A DNA stretch of 64,000 bases, taken from Minisyncoccota bacterium (GTDB lineage Bacteria > Patescibacteriota > Minisyncoccia > Phycocordibacterales > UBA9973). Location: the NCBI GenBank assembly GCA_041665925.1, contig JBAYHW010000002.1:26838-90837 (forward strand), given 5' to 3'. Positions 3,100 through 57,023 of this stretch are shown piece after piece. The number at the start of each line of letters is the position of its first letter. Within the stretch, counting starts at the first letter, position 1. The notes beneath the pieces are model-generated. The model was given only the letters and a program-made list of their open reading frames with translations, ran no database searches and was not told the DNA's origin. Position numbers and translations under genes: made by a program.

Positions 3100-3144
3100 A
3101 TGCAATTTGCATTATTTTTTTGTCCTGCTACTATGTACTAGTAC
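3100..3144. promoter_or_regulatory. Operator-like palindromes: ATGCAA-T-TTGCAT (3100-3112) and GTACTAGTAC (3135-3144), with flanking GGTACAGA direct repeats
   Basis: Perfect 6+1+6 and 10-bp palindromes read directly from the sequence. GTACTAGTAC contains the ACTAGT half-site of the classical E. coli TrpR operator (GTACTAGTTAACTAGTAC). They lie immediately downstream of the trpS / TrpR-like pair. Confidence 0.35.
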
Positions 3145-3309
3145 ATGGGTACAGACTAAAAAGATAGATTAGGTACACATGTGACGACAATTATGAAAGA
3201 CAATAATAAAACAAATAAATTAACTAAATCATGGTGGGGTGGAGAGCTTATAGCTTTTGCGCTGTTCCGTTGATTTCTTTTCTCCTAATTTTCAAACAAG
3301 AAATTTACC

Positions 3310-3338
3310 AAATGGCGCACAAGCGCCATTTGTTCTTT
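3310..3338 (+). terminator. Putative intrinsic terminator: 9-bp perfect stem AAATGGCGC/GCGCCATTT, loop ACAA, then TTGTTCTTT
   Basis: Inverted repeat and downstream T-rich tract seen in sequence. It lies ~240 nt downstream of the TrpR-like gene stop. Confidence 0.35.
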
Positions 3339-3374
3339 ATGCCACCTCTAATAATAACTGAAAGGACCAGTGCC

Positions 3375-3548
3375 ATGGATGACAAAAGATCGGAAAATGT
3401 ATACACAGAACAGATGAAAGATGCACAAGAACTCATTTCCAAAGCCAGTGAAGCTCTGGGTGAGTTCAAATTTCGTACCGCATCCACTCTACTCAAACAA
3501 GCGACCGAACAGGTCGATGCACTGTGGGTAGACAAAACTTACTGGTAG
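3375..3548 (+). CDS. Hypothetical small protein (57 aa)
   Basis: Internal ATG of the 3231-3548 ORF, with AAAGGA upstream. The upstream part of the longer ORF looks non-protein-like. No recognisable family. Confidence 0.3.
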   Translation: MDDKRSENVYTEQMKDAQELISKASEALGEFKFRTASTLLKQATEQVDALWVDKTYW

Positions 3549-3579
3549 TTATTTTAGAAATAGAAGGGAGGTGATCCAG

Positions 3580-3609
3580 ATGTCTCTTTGGGATGACTGG
3601 TGGCAGTAG
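3580..3609 (+). CDS. Mini-ORF MSLWDDWWQ (9 codons, 3 Trp): candidate leader peptide
   Basis: Strong SD GGGAGGTGA 5 nt upstream of the ATG. Three Trp codons in nine. Followed 40 nt downstream by an intrinsic terminator. Confidence 0.3.
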   Translation: MSLWDDWWQ

Positions 3610-3647
3610 GAGCCTGATGGTAGCGGAAGTGGCTCCACCGCATCGCT

Positions 3648-3681
3648 GGTCCCGACGTAAAAATCGGGGCCATTTTTATTT
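3648..3681 (+). terminator. Intrinsic terminator: stem GGTCCCGA/TCGGGGCC (8 bp, one G-U), loop CGTAAAAA, then ATTTTTATTT
   Basis: Hairpin plus U-tract seen in sequence, directly after the Trp-rich mini-ORF. Confidence 0.5.
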
Positions 3682-3734
3682 CAGAGTAGTAGTATGATAG
3701 TATTGGGGCATTAATCAAGTTTTCCACAGGTCTA

Positions 3735-3762
3735 TTGCATTTGGTTTTTGGTATGTTATAAT
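3735..3762 (+). promoter_or_regulatory. Sigma-70-like promoter: TTGCAT (-35), 16 nt spacer, TATAAT (-10)
   Basis: Near-consensus hexamers with near-optimal spacing, upstream of the small Cys/His ORF and the GC-rich island. Confidence 0.45.
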
Positions 3763-3994
3763 ACACATGTAATGAAAATTTCACAGCGTAACAACTTTTT
3801 CTTTTTTAACTTTAGCCCTAACCTTAGAGGTCAGATATTTGCGCTGTAAAAAAGAACTTAAACAAAAACTTACAACTCAAACACCTGCCCTCTAAGGGGT
3901 GGGTGTTTTCGTTTCTGCGTGTGGCAGGAGCGAAAGGGTAAAGGGGCTACCTATCATAAAGTCCTTAATGAGTTGTTCTTTGGGAGAAATAGCC

Positions 3995-4168
3995 ATGTTT
4001 GATATCTCCACCCAAGTTGAGTGCCGCGAATGCGGCGCGAAGTTCGATCCGTTTTTCGGGCATAACTGCCCGAAGCAGAACAGCGTTGCCGTGGCGCCGA
4101 CAGCGTCGCGACGGGAACGAATCAGCTCGGATTTCCCCGACACAGGGACGTCCAACTGGTCGAAGTAA
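3995..4168 (+). CDS. Small Cys/His-containing protein (57 aa), possible zinc-ribbon
   Basis: SD GGGAGA 7 nt upstream of the ATG. MFDISTQVECRECGAKFDPFFGHNCPKQ... has CxxC...H..C. GC-rich. Flanked by its own promoter and terminator. Confidence 0.4.
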   Translation: MFDISTQVECRECGAKFDPFFGHNCPKQNSVAVAPTASRRERISSDFPDTGTSNWSK

Positions 4169-4194
4169 TTATTCGACCAGATCACAAGGAAGGA

Positions 4195-4236
4195 GGGGGC
4201 GAAGTCTTAACCGACAAGCCCCCACCCCTTTTTCTT
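4195..4236 (+). terminator. Intrinsic terminator: stem GGGGGC/GCCCCC, then ACCCC and a T-run
   Basis: Hairpin and T-tract seen in sequence, directly downstream of the small ORF's stop codon. Confidence 0.45.
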
Positions 4237-4353
4237 AAAAAATATATGAAAAATAAAATTTTAAAATATAATAATTTTTTCTTCAGCGTCAGGATTTACC
4301 CCGAGAGCTGATTTTTGCGTTTAAAAATATCCTAACAAAATATTTTAAAAACA

Positions 4354-4380
4354 AACACCAGCTCTCGTAGAGCTGGTGTT
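4354..4380. promoter_or_regulatory. Perfect 11-12 bp hairpin AACACCAGCTCT / AGAGCTGGTGTT
   Basis: Perfect inverted repeat with a 3-5 nt loop and no following U-tract, ~90 nt upstream of the fusion gene start. It could be a regulatory or processing stem-loop. Confidence 0.3.
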
Positions 4381-4467
4381 CCCGTTTAGCGGGGACATTG
4401 ATCTTTGACAAGTGAATAGTTGTTCTTTTTACGTTGGGGTCAAATCCAAAGAAAGGAGGTGAAGAAA

Positions 4468-6039
4468 ATGAATCCTACAGAAGTTAAAATTGTCATGGAG
4501 ACAATCAAAAAGTCTCTAGGCAACGGCGAGGATGGCTATAACCTGGCGGCACTTCTAAGAAGTGCAATCCAGAAGAAGGTCGCAGAGCTTGAAAAAGAAC
4601 GAAAAGAGAGGGGGGAAGAGGAAATTCAAAGGAAACTCGCTCTCCCTATTCAGCGGGCGGACAAACTTCTTTCTTCTGTTCCACGCCTAGTACTGGAAGA
4701 GATAGACAGTTACACCCGAAGTCATAAATGGGGCGAGCTGTCAGTCTCAGCCCAGCAGAAGTTGCATGAACTGGGCGTTCTCGATCTGTGGGCGAAACGC
4801 CGGACTTACGGACCGGATGGTGGAGAGAAACCTTCAGTCAGCTGGTTTGAACCATTCGGGAAAGCTCTGAAAAATCTCATCTGTAACAAGGTAGATGAGT
4901 TGCGTCGAAGTGACGCAGAGGCCACAGAGGCAGCTCGACAAGCTAGGTTGCAGCCAGCCCAAGAGCTTTTGAATGAGCTTTTAGCAAAGTCCGTCAGGCT
5001 TTCGCTCGAAGATGCAAAAGCTTGTAAGGAGGCGCTGGAGAAGTGGATCGAGGACAATGCCTACCGGCCGTACAGTGGTGGCGGCGGGGGTGGGAGTGGT
5101 TGTGTGGTTTCTGATTCGCAAGAGCCGTTCTTGCGAGGGCGATGGGGCCCGCCTATGAAGTGGCCCCCAACAAATTTTTCGGAGAGACAAATGAATCCGA
5201 TCAAAATCGCAGTGGTGGGATTCGGGGATTTCGGTTCCCGATTCGTTAGGTGGCTCCGGAAAGCGAGAGTCGGTGTCGAAACCATCGCGGTGGTAGACCC
5301 GATTCCTGGGAAAATCTGGGGCCCCGCGGGCGTTCTCGTGAGCCCCAGCATCCACGCAATCTCGCAGCGGGTCCTTTCACAGGTGCAGGTCTTCGTCGAT
5401 TGCACTTCCAAAGGGCAAGGCAAGGAGAATCTTGGTCTGTACCAAGCGCTCGGCAGACCGGCCGTGTTTCAAAACGGCGAAGACCGAGCGCTGTGTCAGT
5501 TGTTCCGCGCGGGCTCGACATTTCTTGCGGGAGCGCCGTACCTCCGCATCCCGCAGTGCTCGGCGCTGGCGACAATGAGTGTGTTTGAAGCGCTTCATCC
5601 GCTTCTCGACATTCGTTCCGTCTACACGCTCCATGCCAAGATCAACAACAAAGACAAAATGCTCGGCCTGGGCGACAAGTCTGCGGCCGACATCACCACG
5701 CTCGCAGAGATTCCGGCGGTCGTTGACGTGTGGTACTTGCGAGAGAAGCCGAAGCAGGGCCGCACGCAGTACGTCTACCACGGCAATCTGCACTTTCAGT
5801 GTGGGGGTGCAATTCCGTCGGCGGATCGCATTCGGAAAGCGCTCATGGCGTCCCGTGTGCCACTGTGTACGCAGGAGCTCGACTCGCTGATTTCACCACG
5901 TCTCACGCAGACGCACGTGGTCGCGGAGAGCATTTCGGTTCAGGGAAACAGCGTTCGCATGAACGTGATTTCCTGGACACCGGAAGTGAACTTTCCACAA
6001 AACCTGGCCGCAATCAAATTGCTGGCCAAAGTTCTTTAA
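4468..6039 (+). CDS. Fusion protein: unknown coiled-coil N-domain + poly-Gly linker + archaeal type-II GAPDH-like NAD(P)-binding dehydrogenase domain
   Basis: Strong SD AAAGGAGGTG 8 nt upstream of ATG 4468 (the track ORF starts at 4420). C-terminal half has IAVVGFGDFGSR (Rossmann), VFVDCTSKGQGKENLGLYQALGRPAVFQNGED (archaeal GAPDH signature DCTP.G.G..N...Y...G..A.FQGGE) and a conserved Cys in RIPQCSAL at the position of catalytic SCNTT. N-terminal ~230 aa has no recognisable family. Linker is SGGGGGGSG. GC is ~58% against a ~35% background. Confidence 0.6.
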   Translation: MNPTEVKIVMETIKKSLGNGEDGYNLAALLRSAIQKKVAELEKERKERGEEEIQRKLALPIQRADKLLSSVPRLVLEEIDSYTRSHKWGELSVSAQQKLHELGVLDLWAKRRTYGPDGGEKPSVSWFEPFGKALKNLICNKVDELRRSDAEATEAARQARLQPAQELLNELLAKSVRLSLEDAKACKEALEKWIEDNAYRPYSGGGGGGSGCVVSDSQEPFLRGRWGPPMKWPPTNFSERQMNPIKIAVVGFGDFGSRFVRWLRKARVGVETIAVVDPIPGKIWGPAGVLVSPSIHAISQRVLSQVQVFVDCTSKGQGKENLGLYQALGRPAVFQNGEDRALCQLFRAGSTFLAGAPYLRIPQCSALATMSVFEALHPLLDIRSVYTLHAKINNKDKMLGLGDKSAADITTLAEIPAVVDVWYLREKPKQGRTQYVYHGNLHFQCGGAIPSADRIRKALMASRVPLCTQELDSLISPRLTQTHVVAESISVQGNSVRMNVISWTPEVNFPQNLAAIKLLAKVL

Positions 6040-6160
6040 CGCAAAGCTTGCCGGCGGAATTGGCAGGTAATTACAAAGAAAGGGGCAGTCTCAAATCAAA
6101 TCATCGAGACGTAAGACCCCTTTTTCTTTTTCATTATTTTTATGCTAAAATGCCATCACA

Positions 6161-9000: not shown

Positions 9001-9924
9001 ATGACATCATACACTGGACCTATTTTTATTATTATTGCAGCGCTGCTCTGGGCCTTTGATGGGCTTATTCGCCAGCATCTATACACACTCCCACCGATTA
9101 CAATAATATTTTTCGAGCATTTAATTGGTTTAATTATTTTATCTCCTTTTGTCCTTAAATATGTTTTAGAAACTAAACTTTCAAAACGAGAGTGGTGGCT
9201 AATAATATTGATATCAATTTTAAGCGGACTCTTCGGAACACTGTGGTTTACGACAGCGCTCGGCAAGGTGCACTTTATTTCAATTTCTGTAGTATTTCTT
9301 TTACAAAAATTACAGCCGATTTTTGCTATTACTTCGGCTCGTATTTTCTTGAAAGAAAAGCTAGATAGAAGATACATTAAATGGGCCCTCTTAGCACTCG
9401 CTTCTGCATATTTTGTAACTTTTCCGAACGGTATTGTAAATTTACAAACAGGTGAGGGGACAGTGATCGCAGCTTTATTTGCTCTCGGGGCTGCCTTTGC
9501 TTGGGGAACGTCTACCACATTTTCTAAAATGCTTTTAGGTAAGCTAGATTTTAAAGTCAGTACTTTTTATAGGTTTTTATTTACTCTTATCATCGCGTTT
9601 CCATTTGTATATATATTCGGTAGATCCTTTGGTGGATTTGAGCAAGTGCGTATATTTGCTATCCCGAGCGTATCACAATTTGCTTGGCTGGCGCTCGTCG
9701 CTGTGTCCACGGGCATGGTGGCGCTCCTCATTTATTATCGAGGGCTTGCAAAAACTTCTGTGCATGTTTCTACAATTCTAGAGCTGACGTTCCCATTCGT
9801 AGCTATTCTGCTTGATTTTACAGTAAACAACACAGTATTGTCTCTGTCACAATGGGTAGCGTCTTTTGTGCTCGTGTTTAGTATTTACCAAATAGCTCGC
9901 TTACGTGAAAATCTAAATGTCTAA
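9001..9924 (+). CDS. EamA/DMT-family membrane transporter
   Basis: 307 aa, about ten predicted TM helices arranged as two EamA-like halves. Confidence 0.55.
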   Translation: MTSYTGPIFIIIAALLWAFDGLIRQHLYTLPPITIIFFEHLIGLIILSPFVLKYVLETKLSKREWWLIILISILSGLFGTLWFTTALGKVHFISISVVFLLQKLQPIFAITSARIFLKEKLDRRYIKWALLALASAYFVTFPNGIVNLQTGEGTVIAALFALGAAFAWGTSTTFSKMLLGKLDFKVSTFYRFLFTLIIAFPFVYIFGRSFGGFEQVRIFAIPSVSQFAWLALVAVSTGMVALLIYYRGLAKTSVHVSTILELTFPFVAILLDFTVNNTVLSLSQWVASFVLVFSIYQIARLRENLNV

Positions 9925-10249
9925 TGATTTATTAAATAAAAAATGCGTACCATGCGAAGGGGGAGTGTTCCCGCTGACACGCGAAGAAATACCCCCTTAC
10001 ATGGCACAAATAAATGGCTGGGAACTTTCCGAAGACGCTACCGAGATTTCTAAGCAGTATAAATTCAAGGATTTTATCGGTGCGATAAATTTCGTGAATC
10101 ACGTAGCCGAAATTGCGGAGGCAGAAGGTCACCATCCAGACATTCATATCAATTACAATAAAGTGAAACTCGTGCTCTCCACGCACGCCATCGGCGGTCT
10201 CTCCGAGAACGACTTTATCCTAGCTGCGAAAGTAGACGCGAGCAAATAA
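9917..10249 (+). CDS. Pterin-4-alpha-carbinolamine dehydratase (PCD/DCoH)
   Basis: 110 aa. CVPCEGG...L near the N-terminus, and the EGHHPDI motif typical of PhhB/DCoH. Confidence 0.7.
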   Translation: MSNDLLNKKCVPCEGGVFPLTREEIPPYMAQINGWELSEDATEISKQYKFKDFIGAINFVNHVAEIAEAEGHHPDIHINYNKVKLVLSTHAIGGLSENDFILAAKVDASK

Positions 10250-10316
10250 AAAAAGGGCGTAGTAGTTGTGTTCCAAACTTGCTACGTCCTCTTTTGCGCG
10301 GGCCAGGCGCGATGAA

Positions 10317-10880
10317 TCAGTGAATGCCACCAGAACTTCCGCAGTAGTGCGAGTCCGATTTAAGCCGGAGTACAATGAACCCACGACGGCGAAGTTGTAA
10401 GAGAGGGTGACGGTTTCCGTTTTTGAATGCGGAAATCGACTTCTCGCGATCTCTGAGGTCTGCTCTGTACTTCTGCATGTCCGTTTTGTATTTCAGAGAG
10501 TACAGCTTGTTGATCTCGTCGATCACCTTCGAGAGTGATCTTTCCAAACCAAGAGATTTAATCTCAGAGATCCTGATTTTAATCTGGCTTCCCTCGAAAC
10601 AAACCTCATCTCTGTAAAGATACGAAGTCTTGGGATTAAATGCCCTCTCGAGCCCTTGACGAATCCATTCAACAGTGAGCTTGCTAGTACCCCGAGGACG
10701 CTTGGGACGGATAGGTTTCCGGAATAGGTCGTCGATGAGATTCTCTTCGCGCTTGTAGACCGCACATGGAATGTTCACTGATGCGAGCGTCTCATCGATT
10801 GTTCCAGTCGCATCCTTGAGTTCTTTCCAATTTCGTACGATCTTGCCGCGCTTGACCGAATATTTTTCGATACTAAGCAT
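10317..10880 (-). CDS. Hypothetical protein (187 aa), unknown family, elevated GC
   Basis: Strong SD AAAGGAGGTGA 8 nt upstream of the minus-strand ATG. GC ~47% against a ~35% background. No recognisable motifs. Lies downstream of a TrpR-like gene of similar GC. Confidence 0.55.
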   Translation of the reverse strand: MLSIEKYSVKRGKIVRNWKELKDATGTIDETLASVNIPCAVYKREENLIDDLFRKPIRPKRPRGTSKLTVEWIRQGLERAFNPKTSYLYRDEVCFEGSQIKIRISEIKSLGLERSLSKVIDEINKLYSLKYKTDMQKYRADLRDREKSISAFKNGNRHPLLQLRRRGFIVLRLKSDSHYCGSSGGIH

Positions 10881-35759: not shown

Positions 35760-36894
35760 GTGTAAGTTTTGAATTTACTAAAACTCTTGGCTCATCTTCT
35801 TTTGTAATTTTACCGGCAATTTTTGCTTTTATGGAAAAATCCTTAGCTCTTTTGATGCAATAATCCGCATCTTTTTCATCCACTACTATCAACATACCTT
35901 GTCCCCCATTCCATACTTCATAAAATTCTTCATCGGAGATGTTGTGCCACAAGGCGCACTTCTTCATAATTTCTGGAGGTTCCCACAGATCAAAAAGTTC
36001 TGCGGACAGTTTTTTCGAGAAAAGAATATCTTTTGCAAGTTTCTCTTTAAGTGCTCCTCCTGAAAGGTGAACAATAGATTTTATTTCTATTTCAGATTTA
36101 AAATTGGGATCATACCATCCATGTAAAGTATTAATAAATACATCATACAGTACAGATGGGCATGCTGCTTGTTTGATACTTGTTTGTGCTTCTGGGTTTT
36201 CCCACCATTTTGTCCCGAATTTATCTTGAAATGCTTTTCTCACTGAAGTTCCGCCATTACACCTGAAACCTTCTTCTTTTAGGGCTATTATCACTTGTCC
36301 TGGTTTTAATTTATCCCCAGTTATCATTTTCAGAGGATGGTAAGCTCCGATCATTACTCCAGACCAATTAAATTTTGTTTGCGATCCAATTATCTCTGAA
36401 CCTAGAGCATCTTTTACTTGGGCAGTCTCCCCCTTGAGTGCTACTATATTGCTAATTTTTGTGACTTCACCTAAACCTCGCAAAAGATTTTTATAAGTTT
36501 CACTAACTTCATTTCCGGCTTGCCCTATGCCGTTGGTATCCAAGATATTAAGAAAAACTAAAGGTATGCCTCCATAACGGGTTACATCGCTTGCGGTCAT
36601 GGCGATAATATCATAAGCTGCCGTTCTGTGCATTTTAGCTGCGTCTACCAGAATACCCTTAGTTCCCATACCATCAGCTGTTGCCTCAATAAAATATCCT
36701 TCTGGTAAATTTTTAAAAACAAAAGGCCTAGGACCCCTAAAATTACCTTCAGATAAATCTTTTACTTCTACGTATGGAGAATTGTTATAACTTTCTTTAC
36801 AAATAGACCCAGCAAAACTACTAAACGCTGCTTCTTCATCAATGTCTACACCATCCTGCGAAGAAATTTTTGTTTTGGTAGTGTTTTCATCCAT
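35734..36894 (-). CDS. purM: Phosphoribosylformylglycinamidine cyclo-ligase (AIR synthetase)
   Basis: 386 aa. TADGMGTKGILV (DGVGTK motif), with PurM N- and C-domains collinear. Confidence 0.85.
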   Translation of the reverse strand: MDENTTKTKISSQDGVDIDEEAAFSSFAGSICKESYNNSPYVEVKDLSEGNFRGPRPFVFKNLPEGYFIEATADGMGTKGILVDAAKMHRTAAYDIIAMTASDVTRYGGIPLVFLNILDTNGIGQAGNEVSETYKNLLRGLGEVTKISNIVALKGETAQVKDALGSEIIGSQTKFNWSGVMIGAYHPLKMITGDKLKPGQVIIALKEEGFRCNGGTSVRKAFQDKFGTKWWENPEAQTSIKQAACPSVLYDVFINTLHGWYDPNFKSEIEIKSIVHLSGGALKEKLAKDILFSKKLSAELFDLWEPPEIMKKCALWHNISDEEFYEVWNGGQGMLIVVDEKDADYCIKRAKDFSIKAKIAGKITKEDEPRVLVNSKLTLGKIIIYK

Positions 36895-42322: not shown

Positions 42323-45210
42323 TTGTTTTTATTAGAGAAATTATGGTATATGGTGTGCAATTTTTTTGCGTTTAATTCAGCTAATTTCATTTTATCTGTG
42401 ATTACGAAATTCTTGTCTTTGGAGACTTTTCCGATCTTAGCATGTGGAATATTTTTGATAATTTTTTCAAACGCAGAAACGTTTTTGTGTGACACAGACA
42501 CAAGGATTCTTCCTTGGCTTTCAGAAAAAAGTTTCACTTCTGGTGAACTTGCTGTTCCTGGAAGATTTTTTATTGAAACATTACAGCCAATCATACCGCC
42601 TAGGCTTGCCTTTGCTAAGGCTATAGCAAGCCCCCCAGAATTTATAGAAATCGCAGAGGCTACCAATTCTTTTTCGATTGTTTGCTCTAATGCTTTATAA
42701 ATTTTTATATGCTTCCTTACATCAACTTTAGGAACAGCGTTACCTACATAACCCAGCATCTTAAAATATTCTCCACCACCGAGCTCATCGTAAGTTTCTC
42801 CAAGAATATAAATTACATCGCCACTGCTTTTAAATTCTGGCGATACGGTTTTGTTAAAGTTTGGCATTACACTCAAGGCCGAAATTAGGAGAGTTGGAGG
42901 GACAGAAATAGCCACAGGATTCCCTTTTTCGTCGTACCCTTTGAAATCGTTAAACATGCTATCTTTTCCGGAAATAAAAGGTGTGCCGAAGCCTACAGCA
43001 GTGTCGTAGCAAGCTTTTACAGCCTCTGTGAGCTGATATAAACGCTTAGGGTCATTTGAGCTACACCAGCAGAAATTGTCTAAAATAGCGATATTTGAGA
43101 GCTTCCCACCAGCTGATATGGTGTTCCGGATGGCAGTATCTATAGCACAAGAGGCCATATCATAGGTGCTAATGTCGCCATATGAAGGATAAGTACTGGA
43201 AGTTACTACAATCCCCTTTTTTGAATTTAGGACAGGGTTGAAAACTTGAGCGTCAGTATTTATGCGTCCCTGACCAGAGAGTGGTTTTAAAACAGAGGAC
43301 GCTTGAACTTCGTGATCGTATTGCCCTGAGACGAACGAAAATCCACTAATGTTTTTTTGTCCAAGTAACCTTTCAAGTTCAGCTGTGTAAGATTTTTTGT
43401 TATTAAGTACAGGCTCCGAATGTTTTTCTATGAAGGGTGAAGTTAGTAATTGGTGTTTCGGTAATCCGTCGTGTAGGAAATCCATGTCAATATCCATGAT
43501 TTTTTTACCTTTGTATTCCACAATACATTTTTCAGAATCTGTAAATGTACCTACGATTGTAGCTTCTACTCCGCGGCTATCCATTAAATTTTTAAATATT
43601 TTCCATTTTGATTTTGGTATCGAGAGAGTCATACGCTCTTGAGATTCTGAAATCCAAATTTCCCACGGACGTAAGCCAGGATACTTGAGGGGCACCTTTT
43701 CTAGGTCAACTTTCGCTCCACCACACTCCTTTGCCATTTCTGCAATTGAGCAAGAGATTCCTCCAGCGCCATTATCGGTGATGCTATTATATAAACCCAA
43801 GTCTCGCACCTCTTTCACTATCGCATCACTTAATTTCTTTTGAGTTATTGGGTCACCAATTTGCACCGCAGCAGCAGGAGAATTTGAATCCGTAGCCACA
43901 GAAGAAAATGTCGCTCCATGAATACCATCTAGCCCAACTCTTCCTCCAGCGACTACAATATAATCCCCCACCTTAGCTTTCTTGAGGTGAGAAAGCTTCC
44001 CATTAATTTTTCTTGGAATTAACCCTATAGTACCAGCGAAGACCAAAGGTTTCCCGCGATAACGATCATCGAATTTTAAAAATCCATTTAAAGTAGGAAT
44101 ACCTGAACAATTCCCCCCAGAATTTATTCCTTTAACTACGCCATCCATTATACGTTTAGGAGGTAGCATCAGTTGGGTTAAACTTTTATCCCTATAAAAT
44201 TTCCGCTTATCTTCAGGATTTCCAAAACAGAAACCGTATACATTTGCTACCGGCTTAGCTCCCATGCCGAAACCAATAGTATCTCGGTTTACGCCCACAA
44301 TACCAGTAATAGCTCCCCCGAAAGGATCTAAGGCCGATGGGCTGTTGTGGGTTTCTACTTTATGGGTTATTAAATAATCATTATCGAAAATTATTCCGCC
44401 AGAATTATCACTAAATACCGAGACACAGAAATCCTTCTTCCCTTTTTGTTTGCGAATTAAGTTCGTAGCACCTTTGATGTACGTTTTATATAAACCATCT
44501 TTAATGTCATCAATAGGATTTGCAAAAATAGTGTGCTTGCAGTGTTCTGACCACGTCTGCGCCAATGCCTCGAGCTCGATATCTATAGGATTCCTCTTTA
44601 AACCAAGGAAGTGTTCTTTGATTACCTGCATTGAAGGTAAATCGAGGGCAAGTGGGCCACGTCGGGAACCATTTCTATCTAAAATTCCAAGCTTACCGGT
44701 GTTTTCTAGTTCTTCATCTGTAAAATTTTTGAGTGGGACTTCAATTACTGGAAGAGTTTTTTCTAAAATTACTTGAGGGGCTTTCAGGGGCAGACCCTTT
44801 GTTTTTTGTATCTCTGAAAAACTAGCAATATACGAGCGTTCAATTAATGGATTATGTAGAGAAAGCGCAATTTTCTTTACTTCTTCTGGTTTACTAGATT
44901 TCGAAATAATAAATATCTTTGAAGCATAGACGGCAAACTGCCCATCATTTTTCATGTGAAATAAATCGCAGATAGTTTCTTCAGTAGTGTGTCCGACATT
45001 ATCGGTGACTCCAGGCTTGTATCCAATTTCAATAACGTATGAAAATTTAATAATTTTAGGGAATTTGTTTATAGAAAAGTCTTCAAGGACGGGGTTCGTC
45101 AGAGCTTTCGCTATTTTTTGAATTTTTTCATTAGAGAATTTGTGCGTTATGAGATAGGAGTCAACGAAGTTGGCTTTTCCCTTAGATATCACATATATCC
45201 TTGAAATCAT
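42319..45210 (-). CDS. purL: Phosphoribosylformylglycinamidine synthase, PurS-like N-terminal duplication fused to PurL
   Basis: 963 aa. Two N-terminal PurS-like units (KPGVTDNVGHTTEETICDLF; LTNPVLEDFSI / LHNPLIERSYI) followed by the full PurL AIRS/AIRS-C repeats. Confidence 0.8.
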   Translation of the reverse strand: MISRIYVISKGKANFVDSYLITHKFSNEKIQKIAKALTNPVLEDFSINKFPKIIKFSYVIEIGYKPGVTDNVGHTTEETICDLFHMKNDGQFAVYASKIFIISKSSKPEEVKKIALSLHNPLIERSYIASFSEIQKTKGLPLKAPQVILEKTLPVIEVPLKNFTDEELENTGKLGILDRNGSRRGPLALDLPSMQVIKEHFLGLKRNPIDIELEALAQTWSEHCKHTIFANPIDDIKDGLYKTYIKGATNLIRKQKGKKDFCVSVFSDNSGGIIFDNDYLITHKVETHNSPSALDPFGGAITGIVGVNRDTIGFGMGAKPVANVYGFCFGNPEDKRKFYRDKSLTQLMLPPKRIMDGVVKGINSGGNCSGIPTLNGFLKFDDRYRGKPLVFAGTIGLIPRKINGKLSHLKKAKVGDYIVVAGGRVGLDGIHGATFSSVATDSNSPAAAVQIGDPITQKKLSDAIVKEVRDLGLYNSITDNGAGGISCSIAEMAKECGGAKVDLEKVPLKYPGLRPWEIWISESQERMTLSIPKSKWKIFKNLMDSRGVEATIVGTFTDSEKCIVEYKGKKIMDIDMDFLHDGLPKHQLLTSPFIEKHSEPVLNNKKSYTAELERLLGQKNISGFSFVSGQYDHEVQASSVLKPLSGQGRINTDAQVFNPVLNSKKGIVVTSSTYPSYGDISTYDMASCAIDTAIRNTISAGGKLSNIAILDNFCWCSSNDPKRLYQLTEAVKACYDTAVGFGTPFISGKDSMFNDFKGYDEKGNPVAISVPPTLLISALSVMPNFNKTVSPEFKSSGDVIYILGETYDELGGGEYFKMLGYVGNAVPKVDVRKHIKIYKALEQTIEKELVASAISINSGGLAIALAKASLGGMIGCNVSIKNLPGTASSPEVKLFSESQGRILVSVSHKNVSAFEKIIKNIPHAKIGKVSKDKNFVITDKMKLAELNAKKLHTIYHNFSNKNK

Positions 45211-50939: not shown

Positions 50940-52130
50940 CTAAGGTTTAGTCATGAAAGATAAGCTACTCCCATAGTCTGTTCCATATTGATTCTTTGCG
51001 ACAACTCGAAAAAAGTATTTTGTATTTTTACTTAATCCGGCAATATTTGCTTCTACACTCACCGCACTAGTTCCTGCGGCAAGCGTTTTAACAGTTGTTC
51101 CTCCCCCTATGATTATTCCAAATAATGAATCTTCGCTATACTCAAACCAGTATGTTGTGTCGACACCATTAGGATTAACACGACCGTTAAGTGTTGCCTT
51201 AGAGTTAGCGATATCAGAAGCTTGAATAGTTGTGGCAGTTGGAGAGCTAGGATCAGCGGGACCTTTGGTAATGAAATTCAAAGTGGCACCATTTACTGTT
51301 CCGAATTTATTTTGAGCATTTACTCGGAAGTAATATTTCGTTAGGGGTTCTAGATTCGAAAGATTGATCGATACTACTAATTTTGAGTTAAGATCTGAAT
51401 CATTTGTTATAGATTTAATAGAATCTACGTTACCGAAGTTGGTGTCAGTACCATACTCAAACCAATAATTTGTTGCCCATCCATTAGGACTAACTTCACC
51501 GTTTAATGTTGCAGTCGTTCGTAATATAGCCGTAGCTGCTCTTGTGCGAGGAGTTGGGATAGCTGCCTTTGGTTCAGGGTCACTATTAGTTTTTAGACTA
51601 AAGATTTCACCATTCATAGTTCCAAAACTGTTATTCGCACTTAAGCGAAAATAATAGACAGTGTCTGATTTCAACCCAGTTATATAAGCAGGGGTAGAAA
51701 TTGAAGCAAAACTTGAGCCAATTGCTTGCGCTTTAGTCTTGGTCCCAAGTGTGTTAGATGTGCCGTATTCAAACCAATAAGTCGTCGGCATACCATTTGG
51801 AATAACTAATCCATTGACTAGAGCTGTAGAAATTGAAGCGGAAAAATTTGGGCTGGTTTCTACTTTTGGTACTCCTTGTATTGGAGTTTGATTTTGCGAT
51901 GGAGTGACTACTGAAGAAGGATTTTCTGTTATTACCGGTTCAGCGGTTGAAGGCGTTGTATTATCTTTCAATAAAAAATAACCACCAACAATAAGAACTA
52001 TTACAACTAATATTCCAATAATAATGTTTTTATTCATAAGATTTAGAAAATAAATTTTTTGATTAATAAAAAACGTAATAATATAGACAGCTCGACCTTC
52101 GCCAACCATAATGACGAAAAGATAGAGCAA
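50940..52130 (-). CDS. Membrane-anchored surface protein with three tandem fibronectin-III-like repeats
   Basis: 396 aa. N-terminal TM helix, then three ~95-aa repeats each with PNG..T.YWFEYG...YYFR(V/L).A.N..GT..G. Confidence 0.6.
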   Translation of the reverse strand: MLYLFVIMVGEGRAVYIITFFINQKIYFLNLMNKNIIIGILVVIVLIVGGYFLLKDNTTPSTAEPVITENPSSVVTPSQNQTPIQGVPKVETSPNFSASISTALVNGLVIPNGMPTTYWFEYGTSNTLGTKTKAQAIGSSFASISTPAYITGLKSDTVYYFRLSANNSFGTMNGEIFSLKTNSDPEPKAAIPTPRTRAATAILRTTATLNGEVSPNGWATNYWFEYGTDTNFGNVDSIKSITNDSDLNSKLVVSINLSNLEPLTKYYFRVNAQNKFGTVNGATLNFITKGPADPSSPTATTIQASDIANSKATLNGRVNPNGVDTTYWFEYSEDSLFGIIIGGGTTVKTLAAGTSAVSVEANIAGLSKNTKYFFRVVAKNQYGTDYGSSLSFMTKP

Positions 52131-52146
52131 TTATTACATATAGACT

Positions 52147-53232
52147 CTATTTTATAATCTCTATCAGGGCTGGTTCTATGTTTGTAGAGACAAGATTAAA
52201 CCGTAAGTGACCTATATTTTGACCTTGGGCTGTTTTAACGCTAACTCTCCATTTTCCTGGAGCTAAGTCTATGCGCATAGAATAAGTACGGAATCCACCG
52301 TCTCGTCCTCCAACGACCAGTAGATTCACCTTGCTTTCAGTTACCCACTCTTTCAAAGTTTCATTATAGTGTTGCCATTCATGCACTATCGTCAAATTAA
52401 GGCCTTTGGGTGAAAATATAGCACTGTACGCAAACACTGCAGCACCAGGTAAAACATTAAAATCAGGGTAAAGCTGAAAATATCTTTTCCAGCCATTTTT
52501 TTCATACTGCACTAGATAATTCCCATCTTTATTTTTCTGAATTAAATGAAAAGCTCCAGCATCCTTTAAAGACAGCGGAATTGGAGGGATTAAATTTATA
52601 AAATATAGAAAATTTACCGTTACGAAAATACCTAAAATTAATAAAATTAATTTTTTGCTTTCAGTAAATTTCTCTTTTGCGAAATGGAACAGAACTAAAA
52701 TAAATATAGTAATAAAAATCAAACTTACTAAACCTGAAAGGAGGAACACACCAGTCCCGATTTTATGCAAGATAACTGGTACCAGGAAGATTGTAAAGGA
52801 ATAAACTGAAAGGAAAAATAAACTTATTTGAAAACTTAACCTCGCGTGGTGTTTTTTTAAGGATTCATTTGCCCAGAATGCCACCGCAAGTATTAACACG
52901 AACGGCCAAACCACGAAAATATCAGCACTTCTAAAATATAGAACCAAATTAGCTGAGAGAACCCCACCGAAACAAAATTGTAAGATAACTAAATACCAAA
53001 AATGAGTCCGCTCTGAGTTTTGTTCTTTCCCACTAGTAGCCTCTTCTCTGTGAAGAAGTAAAATAAAAATTCCTATTAGTATAATATATCCGAGTATCCA
53101 CAAATTTTCCCAAAGTTTATCCGCCCGCTTGATAGTTAAAGCGTCAATAATAAATCCAAGAATTAGAAACAACGAAGAAACCTGATGCTCATAACGACCA
53201 TAGAAATTTCGAATTGGTTCAATAAAAAACAT
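52147..53232 (-). CDS. Polytopic membrane protein with C-terminal extracytoplasmic domain (unknown family)
   Basis: 361 aa. ~7 TM helices followed by a ~140 aa soluble domain. Part of an operon with the ECF sigma factor. Confidence 0.45.
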   Translation of the reverse strand: MFFIEPIRNFYGRYEHQVSSLFLILGFIIDALTIKRADKLWENLWILGYIILIGIFILLLHREEATSGKEQNSERTHFWYLVILQFCFGGVLSANLVLYFRSADIFVVWPFVLILAVAFWANESLKKHHARLSFQISLFFLSVYSFTIFLVPVILHKIGTGVFLLSGLVSLIFITIFILVLFHFAKEKFTESKKLILLILGIFVTVNFLYFINLIPPIPLSLKDAGAFHLIQKNKDGNYLVQYEKNGWKRYFQLYPDFNVLPGAAVFAYSAIFSPKGLNLTIVHEWQHYNETLKEWVTESKVNLLVVGGRDGGFRTYSMRIDLAPGKWRVSVKTAQGQNIGHLRFNLVSTNIEPALIEIIK

Positions 53233-53256
53233 TTTTGTATTATAACACTTTATAGT

Positions 53257-53955
53257 TTAATCTTCTGTGGCATTTCTCTCTTCATGTTTTATATTTTCTT
53301 CATTTTTCTGTTTGTTTTCTTTTCTATTTCGTACTCTTTCAATAACAGATTCTAAGGCTTGTTTGTTTTCTTCCCTCTCTTTTTCGCGTATTTTCTTAAT
53401 TTTCTCGGAATGTTGCTCTAGACTTACTTCTAATTCTCCTTCAAGACGATTAATGTTATTATTATCTTTCGCTCTTTCTCTGATCTGACGTATATTTTCG
53501 TCAAAATCATTAAAGTTTTTATTTAAATCTTTTTCAATTCTTTCTGTTTTTTCTTTAGTCAATTTTCCTTTTGCTGATAATCGTTCAAATTCATCTACTC
53601 TGTTTTCTATTTTCTTAAAGCTGTACTCTGCTCTGCTTTCTGGGGTGAAGTAGATAAAATTTGGAATTTTTTCGACAAAATTTGTTTTAACTCCATACAA
53701 CACATCTCCAGGTAGTGCATCCAAGGAAGCGAAGGCTGTCGCACTAGTAATTGATAGTAAAAAAATTGCAGAAAATCCAACTTTCAAGAAACTGCTACGA
53801 ATCGAAAAAGAAAAAAACGGGCTAGGTATTGAATAAGATAACTTAGTATCTGAATCCTTTTTCAAGATAGTATTGGAAATACGCTTAAAAAGCTCTTTTT
53901 TCTCAAGATCTGATAATTTTATATCTTTTAATTTTTTTAATTCGTGCATTTTCAT
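53257..53955 (-). CDS. Putative anti-sigma factor (single TM helix, charged coiled-coil C-domain)
   Basis: 232 aa. Cytoplasmic N-terminus, TM helix (VGFSAIFLLSITSATAF), K/E/R-rich coiled coil. Immediately downstream of the ECF sigma gene. Confidence 0.45.
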   Translation of the reverse strand: MKMHELKKLKDIKLSDLEKKELFKRISNTILKKDSDTKLSYSIPSPFFSFSIRSSFLKVGFSAIFLLSITSATAFASLDALPGDVLYGVKTNFVEKIPNFIYFTPESRAEYSFKKIENRVDEFERLSAKGKLTKEKTERIEKDLNKNFNDFDENIRQIRERAKDNNNINRLEGELEVSLEQHSEKIKKIREKEREENKQALESVIERVRNRKENKQKNEENIKHEERNATED

Positions 53956-53961
53956 TTTATA

Positions 53962-54477
53962 TTATATATGAAGTAACGATTTAAGTAAGCTGACTCCCCG
54001 ATTTATTCTGACAGATATCACGTTTGAGGATACTCCCAGTATCTCGGCGATTTCTTTGGGTGACAATTCTTCGACATACCGTAAGTAAACAGCTTCTCTA
54101 TATATTGGCTCTAAGCCCGCCATCTTTTCAATTATCATTTTAGCTTCGAGCTTGACGTCTACTCCTATAATATTGCCTTCAAACATATCCATGAAGACTT
54201 CAGTTTTTTCAGAATTTTCTCCAGCAAATGTCTGTACGGGTATACTTTTCTTCTTTTTATACCAATCGATCACTAAATTCCTTGCTATTCGATAAAGTAA
54301 GGCTCTTGGTTCAAGCACGGCCTCCTTTTGTAAGGTCTGCCAAAATCTGAGATAAGTATCTTCAACTATATCTAAGGCTTGATCTTTATCCGACACTCTA
54401 TATAAGACGAAACGAAAAAGGGCATCGGTATTTTCTCTATAGGCTTTTTCAAATAATTTTGACAAATGTGGATTCAT
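53962..54477 (-). CDS. ECF-subfamily RNA polymerase sigma-70 factor
   Basis: 171 aa. Region 2 (DIVEDTYLRFWQTL, ARNLVIDWYKKKK) and region 4 HTH (LSPKEIAEILGVSSNVISVRINRG). Confidence 0.8.
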   Translation of the reverse strand: MNPHLSKLFEKAYRENTDALFRFVLYRVSDKDQALDIVEDTYLRFWQTLQKEAVLEPRALLYRIARNLVIDWYKKKKSIPVQTFAGENSEKTEVFMDMFEGNIIGVDVKLEAKMIIEKMAGLEPIYREAVYLRYVEELSPKEIAEILGVSSNVISVRINRGVSLLKSLLHI

Positions 54478-54641
54478 AAGAGCTGACGACGTAGGATCGT
54501 ATAACTTACTATATTAACATTAAATTACAGAAAATTATAGATTCAGTAAGTTTATCAGCCATAAGTCGTCTTTATCTGTAGGGAGATTAATTTTTGATCT
54601 TCCTACATTATTAACATTATAAATTAACGTAGAAAAATATT

Positions 54642-55448
54642 ATGAACAAAATAAAAAACATCACGAAAGGTTTCCTTGTATTAGCCCTCTTGGCAGGTGC
54701 CTTTATGGCAACTCCAGTGAGAGCTGAAGATAACAATAGTGGGAATGAATTCTCTAATGCCCGCGCATCTTTAAAAGCTGATGCGATGATTAGATTAGAT
54801 AATTCAGTAGGAGTAGTTATGGGTTCCAACAACGCGATTAGAGTTATGGGTGCGAAAGTCACTGCTGTATCTGGTAATGACATAAGCGTAACTGTTCCAT
54901 TCGGAAATAGTTCTCTCAACTTCGTCGTGAAAACTAATACCCAAACTAAAGTAAACGGTAAATTACTATCTGATCCATCTGTGCTCGCTTTGCTTAAAGT
55001 TGGGAATAAAATCAGCTTCGCTGGTATAATTTCATCTTCTTCTAGCTCTTCTATCACCGTAGATGGAAGTCATGTAGTCAGTCAGGATCTTTATAGTAAT
55101 GGTAGACCAGAAAATAAAACTTCTTTCCAGGGTGAAGTAAAAGCAATCAACGTTGCTGATAATTCATTTACGCTTAAACTAAAAAGTGGCGTATCTGTAA
55201 AGGTAGCTCTCTCAAGTGCTGCTGTTATCACTCTAGATGGAACAGTTAAAACTTTAGCTTCATTAAACGTAGGAGATGAAGTGAAGTTAATTGGTGAATT
55301 GAATTCTGATGGAACAGTTATCACTGCGTCAAAAGTTATCATAGATAGTAATGACGATAATAATGATAACGACAACAACGGAAAAAATGATGAAGGAAAA
55401 GAAAATAAGAGCTGGTTCGGAAAGTTCCGAAACTGGTTTTGGAACTAA
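54642..55448 (+). CDS. Secreted beta-rich repeat protein with D/N-rich stretch and aromatic C-terminus
   Basis: 268 aa. Signal peptide (LVLALLAGAFMATPVRA). Two or three similar ~60-aa units (e.g. VTAVSGNDISVTV / VKVALSSAAVITLDG). C-terminal DDNNDNDNNGKNDEGKENKSWFGKFRNWFWN. Confidence 0.5.
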   Translation: MNKIKNITKGFLVLALLAGAFMATPVRAEDNNSGNEFSNARASLKADAMIRLDNSVGVVMGSNNAIRVMGAKVTAVSGNDISVTVPFGNSSLNFVVKTNTQTKVNGKLLSDPSVLALLKVGNKISFAGIISSSSSSSITVDGSHVVSQDLYSNGRPENKTSFQGEVKAINVADNSFTLKLKSGVSVKVALSSAAVITLDGTVKTLASLNVGDEVKLIGELNSDGTVITASKVIIDSNDDNNDNDNNGKNDEGKENKSWFGKFRNWFWN

Positions 55449-55510
55449 TCATCTCTGATATATCCTAAATATATCTTAACAAAAAGAGCCCATCTGGGCT
55501 CCTTTTGTGT

Positions 55511-56246: not shown

Positions 56247-56927
56247 TCAATTTATAAGCTTCGTACTGGGCTTCAAACATTTTTTTACCTTATGTGTTTG
56301 TTTCATTATTTCACTTAATACCTGAGGTTGCACTAAGCGATTCGCTAGTGTAGCGATACCATCTTTCGTATCAATTTCCCTATCTTCAAAATCGTCTATT
56401 AATTGAATAAGGAAACCGAGTTCCTCGTAGCAATTTTGTTTTTTTATATCCATATGGGGGCTTACCTCAAGGGCAAGCATTAAGGCAGCCTTGCCTCCTT
56501 TTCTTTTGGTTATGTCACGGATCGTGTTTAAAGAAATACCCTTCTCTCTTTGTTGTATAGAGTCTATTTGAGCTTTAGTTAAATCTACAAGTACAGCCAA
56601 GGATTCTGTGGTTAGGTTTTCTTGTGCCAATACCAAGGCGCGATTTAAATAAGAATCTAAATGTGGAGATTTTGTTTCCCTTTCAGTAATTACTCGCAAT
56701 ATCTCTCTTCCTCTAAGTTTAGCGGTTTGTGTGTTTTTTTGATCGAAAGCAGAATCAAAAGTTCTCTCTGCTCCTCCAATAATTGCTGCAGCATTTTTTT
56801 GATTTTTATTTAATTTAACACCTTCTAATTCGGAAATAATTTTTGCTACTCGCACTGATTTTTCAGCGCTAATTACTTCAGCGCCAAGTTCAGGTGCTAT
56901 AACTTTTGATGGTTCGATTTCTCTCAT
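56247..56927 (-). CDS. Polyprenyl synthetase-like protein, N-terminally short (lacks first DDxxD region)
   Basis: 226 aa. Second aspartate-rich motif FLIQLIDDFED and KGGKAALMLALE resemble the C-terminal two-thirds of trans-isoprenyl diphosphate synthases. No FARM-type first motif. The start abuts a tRNA gene. Confidence 0.45.
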   Translation of the reverse strand: MREIEPSKVIAPELGAEVISAEKSVRVAKIISELEGVKLNKNQKNAAAIIGGAERTFDSAFDQKNTQTAKLRGREILRVITERETKSPHLDSYLNRALVLAQENLTTESLAVLVDLTKAQIDSIQQREKGISLNTIRDITKRKGGKAALMLALEVSPHMDIKKQNCYEELGFLIQLIDDFEDREIDTKDGIATLANRLVQPQVLSEIMKQTHKVKKCLKPSTKLIN

Positions 56928-56949: not shown

Positions 56950-57023
56950 TGGCTGGGAGACTTGGAATCGAACCAAGATTCACGGCTTCAAAGGCCGCTG
57001 TCCTACCGTTAGACGATCTCCCA
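56950..57023 (-). tRNA. tRNA-Gln (anticodon UUG), CCA encoded
   Basis: Manual fold of the reverse complement: acceptor UGGGAGA/UCUCCCA (7 bp), D-stem GUCU/GGAC, anticodon stem GCGGC/GCCGU with loop CUUUGAA (U33, anticodon UUG, A37), T-arm CUUGG-UUCGAUU-CCAAG, discriminator G, CCA. Confidence 0.8.

Follow-up and report, generated by a model that had tools for sequence, protein, structure and literature searches.

A candidate ECF sigma regulon with a putative DUF5667 anti-sigma factor and predicted surface-protein targets in a Candidatus Paceibacterota genome

A stretch of 64,000 nucleotides from a metagenome-assembled genome of Candidatus Paceibacterota, within the Candidate Phyla Radiation (CPR)/Patescibacteria, holds five genes between its positions 50940 and 55448 that centre on an extracytoplasmic function (ECF) sigma factor. 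This whole stretch is called the window here. Comparison with related loci suggests that four of the genes form a compact, self-contained ECF sigma regulon: the sigma factor, a DUF5667 protein which is its putative anti-sigma factor, a divergently transcribed secreted DUF5666 protein, and a surface protein with three fibronectin type III (FN3) repeats, under three predicted promoters. We give this reading a probability of about 0.7. The five open reading frames (ORFs) were already listed in an earlier reading made from the letters of the DNA alone (the sequence-only reading), and all five were found again at the same coordinates and on the same strands.

The sigma gene (53962..54477, minus strand) encodes 171 aa with only the sigma2 and sigma4 domains (Sigma70_r2, 38.8 bits; Sigma70_r4_2, 48.7 bits). 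The protein scores 64.1 bits against TIGR02937, the model of the ECF superfamily, where the cut-off is 42.9, and its small size, domain content and score place it among the ECF (group 4) sigma-70 factors. It stays under every cut-off of the named ECF subfamilies compared in NCBIfam (SigM, SigW, SigX, SigV, SigZ, BldN, SigE). The best subfamily score was 74.6 bits for SigM_subfam, against a cut-off of 147.95; the SigW subfamily model gave 51.3 bits (cut-off 243.1), and the BldN family model TIGR02952, among the better NCBIfam matches, gave 64.7 bits (cut-off 206). The nearest solved structures are SigW (5wuq, the best at E = 4e-11), SigL and SigE.

A standard route to ECF promoters is to look for motifs that are conserved ahead of autoregulated sigma genes (PMC3817407). 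DUF5667 and DUF5666 homologues were used as anchors to recover related loci, which gave twelve independent loci with DNA that carry the sigma, DUF5667 and DUF5666 genes together: the window, L001, L003, L005, L006, L009, L010, L017, L019, L101, L102 and L103. The sequence-only reading had pointed to the shared intergenic region (54480-54640) as the place to look for an ECF-type -35/-10 pair, and such pairs were found there in 12 of 12 loci, one directed at the sigma gene and one at the divergent gene. P_sigma (GTAAGTTAT-N-TCGTCA, 54485..54509, minus strand) and P_DUF5666 (GTAAGTTTA-N-TCGTCT, 54546..54570, plus strand) each match GTAAG-N16-CGTC exactly, and they are the only two exact matches in the 64-kb window, both in the spacer between the DUF5666 and sigma genes. 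The same two divergent promoters, with the consensus GTAAGT-N14-TCGTCT, recur in all twelve loci. The alignment of this spacer has a mean column identity of 60%, yet GTAAG(T) and TCGTCT do not vary on either strand.

These sites also stand out by score. A position weight matrix (PWM), built leaving out the window's sites, gave 25.8 bits for P_DUF5666 and 22.2 bits for P_sigma, and the maximum in a control set of 645 kb of related DNA without the sigma pair was 18.6 bits. The distances to the genes are conserved as well. P_DUF5666 lies 72 nt before the DUF5666 ATG in the window (63-78 nt across loci). The CGTC of P_sigma ends 7 nt before the sigma ATG in the window and 6-7 nt before it across 12/12 loci; so short a distance to a conserved start codon implies a leaderless, autoregulated sigma transcript. 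All twelve loci thus have an autoregulatory -35/-10 promoter which the ECF sigma is predicted to recognise. One further site, a GTAAT-N16-CGTC match at 43446-43470 (plus strand), was set aside as a chance match; it lies within the minus-strand coding region of a 963-aa protein and lacks an extended consensus.

L018 (7911-7975, 8001-8804) is the one locus without the sigma and anti-sigma genes. Its DUF5666 gene, an orthologue with 50% identity, lies in the same synteny block. Both ECF sites are gone there, and TTGCTT-N16-TATAAT stands at the equivalent place.

The sequence-only reading had raised the distribution of the cluster among relatives as a check on it. The sigma, DUF5667 and DUF5666 genes turned out to be co-conserved, as a sigma-DUF5667 pair with a divergent DUF5666 gene, in the 12 independent Paceibacterota loci with DNA, but the DUF2914 gene and the FN3 gene (the latter beside the module in 2/13 loci) were not. 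A thirteenth locus, a JGI contig with gene calls only, has the sigma-DUF5667 pair and a divergent 196-aa gene without a Pfam match, whose identity is unconfirmed. The trio occurs in at least three neighbourhoods: a DnaX...MGMT/DoxX/IMPDH synteny block in most loci, and those of L001 and L102. Since L001 and L102 place it in entirely different surroundings, the trio moves as a unit.

The DUF5667 gene (53257..53955, minus strand) starts 6 nt past the sigma stop codon. Its 232-aa product passes the PF18915 cut-off (40.9 bits; cut-off 27) and consists of a conserved N-terminal cytoplasmic segment of about 55 aa, one hydrophobic transmembrane (TM) helix at residues 59-81, and a charged, helical, extracytoplasmic DUF5667 domain. 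An ECF sigma gene lies directly upstream of the DUF5667 gene in all 19 distinct loci where the latter was located, 11 of them genome loci that came from seeding on DUF5667 alone. The two genes are 0-22 nt apart or overlap, and the loci span two phyla, including distant Paceibacterota (L011-13, L075) and Chloroflexia (L014-16). The N-terminal segment, KLKxIKLSDxEKxxLF, is kept in relatives down to 25-28% identity. From this adjacency, the single-TM topology with the N-terminus inside, and the conserved segment, we regard the DUF5667 protein as a putative anti-sigma factor. The sigma/anti-sigma assignment of the sequence-only reading fits the domain matches, the topology and the gene order.

The protein could instead be a co-expressed envelope protein, with the sigma factor controlled in some other way. 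It resembles none of the characterised anti-sigma domains: its N-terminus had no match among known anti-sigma domains in Pfam and the PDB, and nothing meaningful came back when the DUF5667 and DUF5666 profiles were run against the sequences of the PDB. It is also unlike the zinc-binding anti-sigma factors of class I (ZAS), with no Pfam match to zf-HC2 or an anti-sigma family at E <= 0.1, no HxxxCxxC motif and no cysteine at all in residues 1-58, and a cytoplasmic segment of only about 55 aa is short. On the other side stand the position immediately downstream of an ECF sigma gene in 19/19 loci of two phyla, a topology which is that of most ECF anti-sigma factors, and the persistence of the N-terminal segment in remote relatives. 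We consider the envelope-protein explanation quite unlikely. The family is large in any case; its profile collects 9853 cluster representatives at E <= 1e-3.

Two sequence features inside the pair deserve mention in their own right. A TATAAT before the ATG of the anti-sigma gene in the window was considered as a promoter of its own and rejected, since its position is not conserved elsewhere and it arises from the C-terminal codons of the sigma gene. In the distant loci L011 (8100-8124), L012 (803-827) and L013 (8103-8127), a conserved ECF-like TGTAACAAA-N-CGTCTAT on the plus strand lies inside the anti-sigma gene, near codon 42 and upstream of the TM segment. It could yield an N-truncated product without the presumed sigma-binding part, or merely reflect conserved coding sequence.

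The divergent gene (54642..55448, plus strand) encodes the secreted DUF5666 protein of 268 aa. It has a signal-peptide-like N-terminus, two OB-fold barrels at about residues 57-146 and 161-235 in the structure model, a disordered acidic and Asn-rich linker (DDNNDNDNN), and the tail WFGKFRNWFWN. The sequence-only reading had called it a secreted beta-rich repeat protein; the secretion, the linker and the tail were right, but in place of the repeats it described there are two tandem OB-fold barrels. The aromatic-basic tail, GWFGK(I/F)RNWFWK, is conserved in 17 orthologues. Against PF18914 the window protein scores 24.8 bits, with a cut-off of 27, and 11 of 18 other homologues carry a precomputed PF18914 match.

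A stem-loop at 54577..54607 (plus strand; -17 kcal/mol, z = -4.2) would form the predicted 5' end of the DUF5666 mRNA, and an intrinsic-terminator-like hairpin with a T-tract follows the stop codon at 55486..55501 (plus strand). The leader hairpin was found in 9/9 loci folded, with a 6-14 bp stem that starts 4-10 nt past the -10 element, a purine-rich 5' arm (GGGAGAU or AGGAGGAU) and a pyrimidine-rich 3' arm. G-U pairs occur in 7 of the 9, and the mean folding energy is -12.0 kcal/mol in sense against -9.6 kcal/mol in antisense, so that the strand preference is only moderate. Individual folds were used here instead of RNAalifold covariation on the 5' untranslated region (UTR), where MAFFT misaligned the hairpin and the counts were unreliable. 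L018 keeps the hairpin behind its sigma-70-like promoter, and the hairpin would therefore belong to the mRNA leader and not to the ECF promoter. It may serve as a 5'-end stabiliser or as a regulatory leader. Just past it, in the window (54608-54641, plus strand) and in other DUF5666 5' UTRs, lies an A/U-rich (C)AUUAUUA(A/U)C, which was also seen in several 5' UTRs behind the third promoter described below (L003, L010, L019).

In Chloroflexia the two domain families meet more closely. The protein directly after the ECF sigma in L016 carries DUF5667 and four DUF5666 domains (111.5 bits) and the next gene is again DUF5666, and in L014 DUF5666 ORFs come right after the DUF5667 region; this fusion and this gene order link the two families across phyla. 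They also lead us to ask whether the DUF5666 protein is a detached sensor or co-regulator which docks on the DUF5667 ectodomain, as RseB does on RseA, and closes a feedback loop. Such a role would be compatible with the regulon reading and would refine it. Beyond the Chloroflexia genes, 12/12 Paceibacterota loci have DUF5666 as a strictly conserved divergent partner, OB folds are generic ligand-binding modules, and the Trp/Lys tail, itself conserved, might keep the protein attached to the membrane surface. Against it, L018 has the gene under a different promoter without sigma or anti-sigma, which shows that DUF5666 also has a sigma-independent role; none of the 138 closest DUF5667 cluster representatives has a DUF5666 domain; and single-OB DUF5666-like genes occur without a sigma gene nearby in L025, L044 and L088. 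We hold the docking idea as tentative, with the odds against it.

The fourth gene of the candidate regulon encodes a membrane-anchored surface protein (50940..52037, minus strand) with a TM segment at residues 1-27, a Pro/Ser/Thr linker and three FN3-like repeats. The start was taken as the ATG at 52037 (MNKNIIIG, as in the L010 orthologue at 9399-10487) and not as the mechanical TTG at 52130. YWFEY recurs at residues 87, 191 and 296, and the repeats share 38-43% pairwise identity. The three tandem repeats and the membrane anchor of the sequence-only reading are confirmed, with a period of about 105 aa and not about 95. The Pfam matches are fn3 (41.8 bits, cut-off 25), Pur_ac_phosph_N (57.9, cut-off 30) and PhoD_N (48.8, cut-off 30). 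The window protein ends in ...SLSFMTKP, with no LPXTG-like sortase motif, and no homologue of a sortase or of a sortase substrate was found within the window.

Upstream of the FN3 gene, in the 109-nt spacer behind the DUF2914 gene, lies P3 (TGTAATAAT-N-TCGTCAT, 52113..52137, minus strand), an ECF-type promoter candidate of a second class with the motif TGTAATAA(A)-N-TCGTC(T/A)T. It is 76 nt before the FN3 ATG, and most other P3 sites are 67-76 nt from theirs. There are 8 such sites in 7 loci, only before surface-protein genes and nowhere else in those loci, and always 0.1-2.5 kb downstream of the sigma-anti-sigma pair. L010 has two, one before a sortase-substrate gene and one before its own gene for a protein with three FN3 repeats, and the P3 sites of L003, L005, L006, L019 and L103 precede sortase-substrate genes. 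With a P3-only PWM, built from the seven sites outside the window, P3 is the top match in the window at 16.7 bits, where the control maximum is 14.0 bits. The distant sigma-DUF5667 pairs L011-13 have TGTAATAAA..CGTCAT 7 nt before their own sigma ATG, which supports P3 as an ECF promoter of this family. Hairpins are present in the P3 5' UTRs of most loci; the one in the window is not significant.

The sortase substrates behind P3 in the relatives are a family of small proteins, seen together with a sortase in about half of the loci. The proteins (L003 8816-9304, L006 8811-9290, L010 8114-8599, L103 5041-5505, L005 8797-9207) are secreted and have three Cys-x-(S/T)-x-(L/I)-G-Y-S-x(3-4)-G-x-(P/A)-C-x-G repeats; at their C-terminus, (L/F)PTTG is followed by a hydrophobic segment and a basic tail. 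Those scanned (L003, L010) had no Pfam match. All of the genes lie behind a P3-class promoter with the sortase gene next where intact; in L005 the copy is truncated and the sortase is missing.

The FN3 gene could be an unrelated syntenic neighbour, like the DUF2914 gene, with P3 a fortuitous match or no promoter at all, so that only the sigma, anti-sigma and DUF5666 genes work together. The FN3 gene adjoins the module in just 2 of 13 loci (the window and L010/L052), in L101, the closest relative, that place is taken by a different gene with a cytoplasmic-looking product of 239 aa and P3 is absent, and the 13.3 bits of P3 with a mixed PWM resemble those of a chance match at 36330. Yet the P3-only PWM, trained on other loci, ranks this site first in 64 kb and above the entire 645-kb control, the spacer, the orientation and the distance to the ATG are those of most P3 sites, and in L010 the sortase-substrate and FN3 genes each have a copy of their own. 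We think it unlikely that the FN3 gene is a bystander.

It seems less likely still that a second ECF sigma factor of the L011-L013 type, encoded elsewhere in the genome, reads the P3 class (TGTAATAAA..CGTC) and that the FN3 and sortase genes belong to another regulon. The -35 element of P3 is indeed closer to the autoregulatory promoters of L011-13 than to the P_sigma and P_DUF5666 of this clade. But P3 keeps close behind this very sigma-anti-sigma pair, no P3 site was found in the 645 kb of related DNA without the pair, and no second sigma gene was found within the 64-kb window.

Several points weigh against the regulon as a whole. The DUF5667 protein has neither the zinc motif nor a known anti-sigma domain. 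P3 is the weakest of the three sites, within the control background when scored with the mixed PWM, and its -35 element is GTAAT/GTAAC against the GTAAG of the core promoters. The boundaries of the transcription units rest on promoter predictions, no minus-strand terminator being detected between them. The scans covered the 64-kb window and 7-9 kb flanks, which leaves room for more regulon members or a second ECF sigma. Lastly, the entire case is comparative and in silico: sequence comparison is the source of the gene identities, of the promoter motifs with their conservation, of the co-occurrence, and of the hairpin and protein folds.

From these data we infer how the parts would work together, namely the binding of sigma by anti-sigma, the transcription start sites, the match between this sigma and these promoters, the signal and the physiological role. 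The DUF5667 protein, co-transcribed and single-pass, would sequester sigma at the membrane, its N-terminus in the cytoplasm and its helical domain facing outward. An extracytoplasmic cue would inactivate it, and the freed sigma would bring RNA polymerase to the three promoters, which share GTAA(G/T)-N16-CGTC. At P_sigma transcription would start at or next to the sigma ATG, so that sigma and anti-sigma would be made from a leaderless mRNA under positive autoregulation. At P_DUF5666 the secreted two-OB-fold protein would be induced, from an mRNA that opens with the hairpin and closes at the terminator; as the Chloroflexia fusion suggests, this protein might act as a co-sensor which physically works with the DUF5667 ectodomain. 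At the weaker P3 class, the surface protein with three FN3 repeats would be induced, and in relatives the Cys-repeat LPXTG-like protein and its sortase.

A more specific version of this scheme seems doubtful to us. In it, the DUF5667 and DUF5666 proteins would form a split extracellular sensor, a detached counterpart of the fused DUF5667-DUF5666 anti-sigmas in Chloroflexia. The OB protein, tethered to the membrane surface by its Trp/Lys tail, would bind a ligand from the cell wall or a host; this binding would gate the release of sigma, and adhesin-like surface proteins (the FN3 protein, the sortase substrate and its sortase) would then be displayed. If true, the Candidate Phyla Radiation would have its first defined circuit from signal to surface, in an ultra-small and probably host-dependent bacterium. 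The sequence-only reading had suggested a surface-protein regulon with a purpose in envelope stress or in attachment to a host or episymbiont. A small regulon with lineage-specific surface proteins is a fair description given the P_sigma and P_DUF5666 sites and the related P3 before the FN3 gene, with DUF2914 left outside it; the proposed purposes are speculation.

The fifth gene of the cluster (52147..53232, minus strand) encodes a 361-aa protein with seven TM helices and a DUF2914 domain (PF11141, 44.5 bits, above the cut-off of 23.6). Its C-terminus is a confidently modelled Ig-like beta-sandwich that resembles the Ig-like domains of RhoGDI and the Wzt carbohydrate-binding domain; the model of the seven predicted helices has a pLDDT below 50 and allows no conclusion on the fold of the membrane part. 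DUF2914 proteins are very common and very conserved in Paceibacterota, with more than 1272 homologues, the top 120 at 62-68% identity. A DUF5667 gene is directly upstream in 3 of 64 metagenomic DUF2914 loci, where the upstream neighbours fall into 49 clusters, and of about 50 such loci whose flanks extend for at least 2.5 kb, just L052 and L075 have a sigma gene beside DUF2914. Seen from the module, DUF2914 adjoins it in 6/13 loci.

The DUF2914 gene also seems to have a promoter of its own. In the 24-nt spacer before it, an extended -10 box, TGTTATAAT (53239..53247, minus strand), ends 6 nt before the ATG. Among 23 distinct upstream regions of DUF2914 genes in other loci, 21 have a TATAAT-like box (at least 5/6) that ends 4-8 nt ahead of the ATG; in 19 the distance is 5-6 nt, and 14 of the 21 have the extended TGn. 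A conserved, leaderless TGnTATAAT promoter of the housekeeping (sigma-70) type speaks for an expression of DUF2914 that does not depend on the ECF sigma. We take it for a conserved gene of the lineage and not for a member of the regulon, with read-through from the sigma promoter possible. The 7-TM gene, which the sequence-only reading had counted in the module, therefore drops out of it, and the single four-gene minus-strand operon probably gives way to three units: sigma with anti-sigma, DUF2914, and the FN3 gene, the last possibly running on into an MGMT-like gene.

The same arrangement recurs across the window. A -10-like box about 6 nt before the ATG was found for 15 of 48 window genes, against 6 at a control offset, and leaderless transcription looks common in this genome and lineage, which makes a leaderless sigma gene plausible. 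Few genes in this Paceibacterota lineage have a Shine-Dalgarno-like sequence. Directly upstream of DUF2914 in three other loci (L025 4611-5036, L044 6505-6960, L088 1-432) are the single-OB DUF5666-like secreted proteins mentioned above, of about 140-150 aa; with no sigma gene nearby, they may hint at a connection between DUF5666 and DUF2914 apart from the ECF module.

Two other parts of the window caught our attention. Between a HAD hydrolase and DnaX, a 226-aa protein (56247-56927, minus strand) has only weak HTH_26 and PADLOC 'control protein' matches; it adjoins the sole tRNA gene of the window (56953-57023, minus strand), and the insert is missing at the matching position in L003, L005 and L010. 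At about 4500-6100 a block reaches 50-60% GC, where the genome has about 37%; it coincides with an ORF of 539 aa (4420-6039, plus strand, TTG start) that has no Pfam match and carries a Rossmann-like IKIAVVGFGDFG motif in its C-terminal half. With E <= 1 as the limit, the block still matches no Rfam family, and the 1.3 kb before it (3105-4420) lack a long ORF. It may be horizontally acquired DNA. The five proteins of the cluster itself showed no likeness to any defence-system component in PADLOC.

Since most CPR/Patescibacteria are uncultured, the way in which they regulate their genes is almost unexplored. The literature searched gave no functional information on DUF5667, DUF5666 or DUF2914, by name or Pfam accession, or on ECF sigma factors in CPR/Parcubacteria. 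DUF5666 appeared there in gene lists only and DUF5667 was not mentioned, and neither had experimental work. The locus is thus a concrete regulon candidate, with one sigma, a putative anti-sigma, a promoter motif in two strength classes and a few surface-exposed targets. It suggests a working role in ECF signalling for two widespread domains of unknown function: DUF5667, with its thousands of cluster representatives, and DUF5666, linked to it in two phyla. It also suggests that housekeeping and ECF promoters in this lineage are both typically placed for leaderless transcripts.

The closest parallels are the SigW-RsiW, SigX-RsiX and SigM-YhdLK systems of B. subtilis. As here, their sigma factors have only sigma2 and sigma4, the gene of a single-pass anti-sigma is adjacent, and an autoregulatory promoter has a (T)GTAAx -35 and a CGTC -10 about 16 nt apart. 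Regulons of that type serve envelope and surface functions. Unlike them, the putative anti-sigma here has a DUF5667 ectodomain and no zinc-binding domain, the sigma gene is predicted to be leaderless, and the -35 core is GTAAG and not AAC. E. coli sigmaE-RseA-RseB shares the membrane anti-sigma, the autoregulation and a separate secreted protein that could act on the outward domain. RseB, though, is a product of the same operon and folds differently, whereas DUF5666 is divergent, has OB folds and is also found without the sigma (L018), and in this organism one would expect no outer membrane and no outer-membrane-protein signal. In Streptomyces, the BldN regulon includes secreted and surface proteins, some of them sortase-anchored. 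The sigmaBldN-RsbN system (chaplins, rodlins; PMC6101532) likewise joins an ECF sigma to a non-canonical membrane anti-sigma, but the sigma described here is not a member of the BldN family, the DUF5667 protein is unrelated in sequence to RsbN, and the targets differ. The Chloroflexia loci L016 and L014 have the same two domain families at an ECF sigma gene; there the DUF5666 repeats are fused to the anti-sigma or follow it, and here DUF5666 is a separate, divergent, secreted protein with an aromatic tail, both arrangements being known from sequence. In its overall logic, the proposed regulon is that of the classical ECF systems and does not depart from it.

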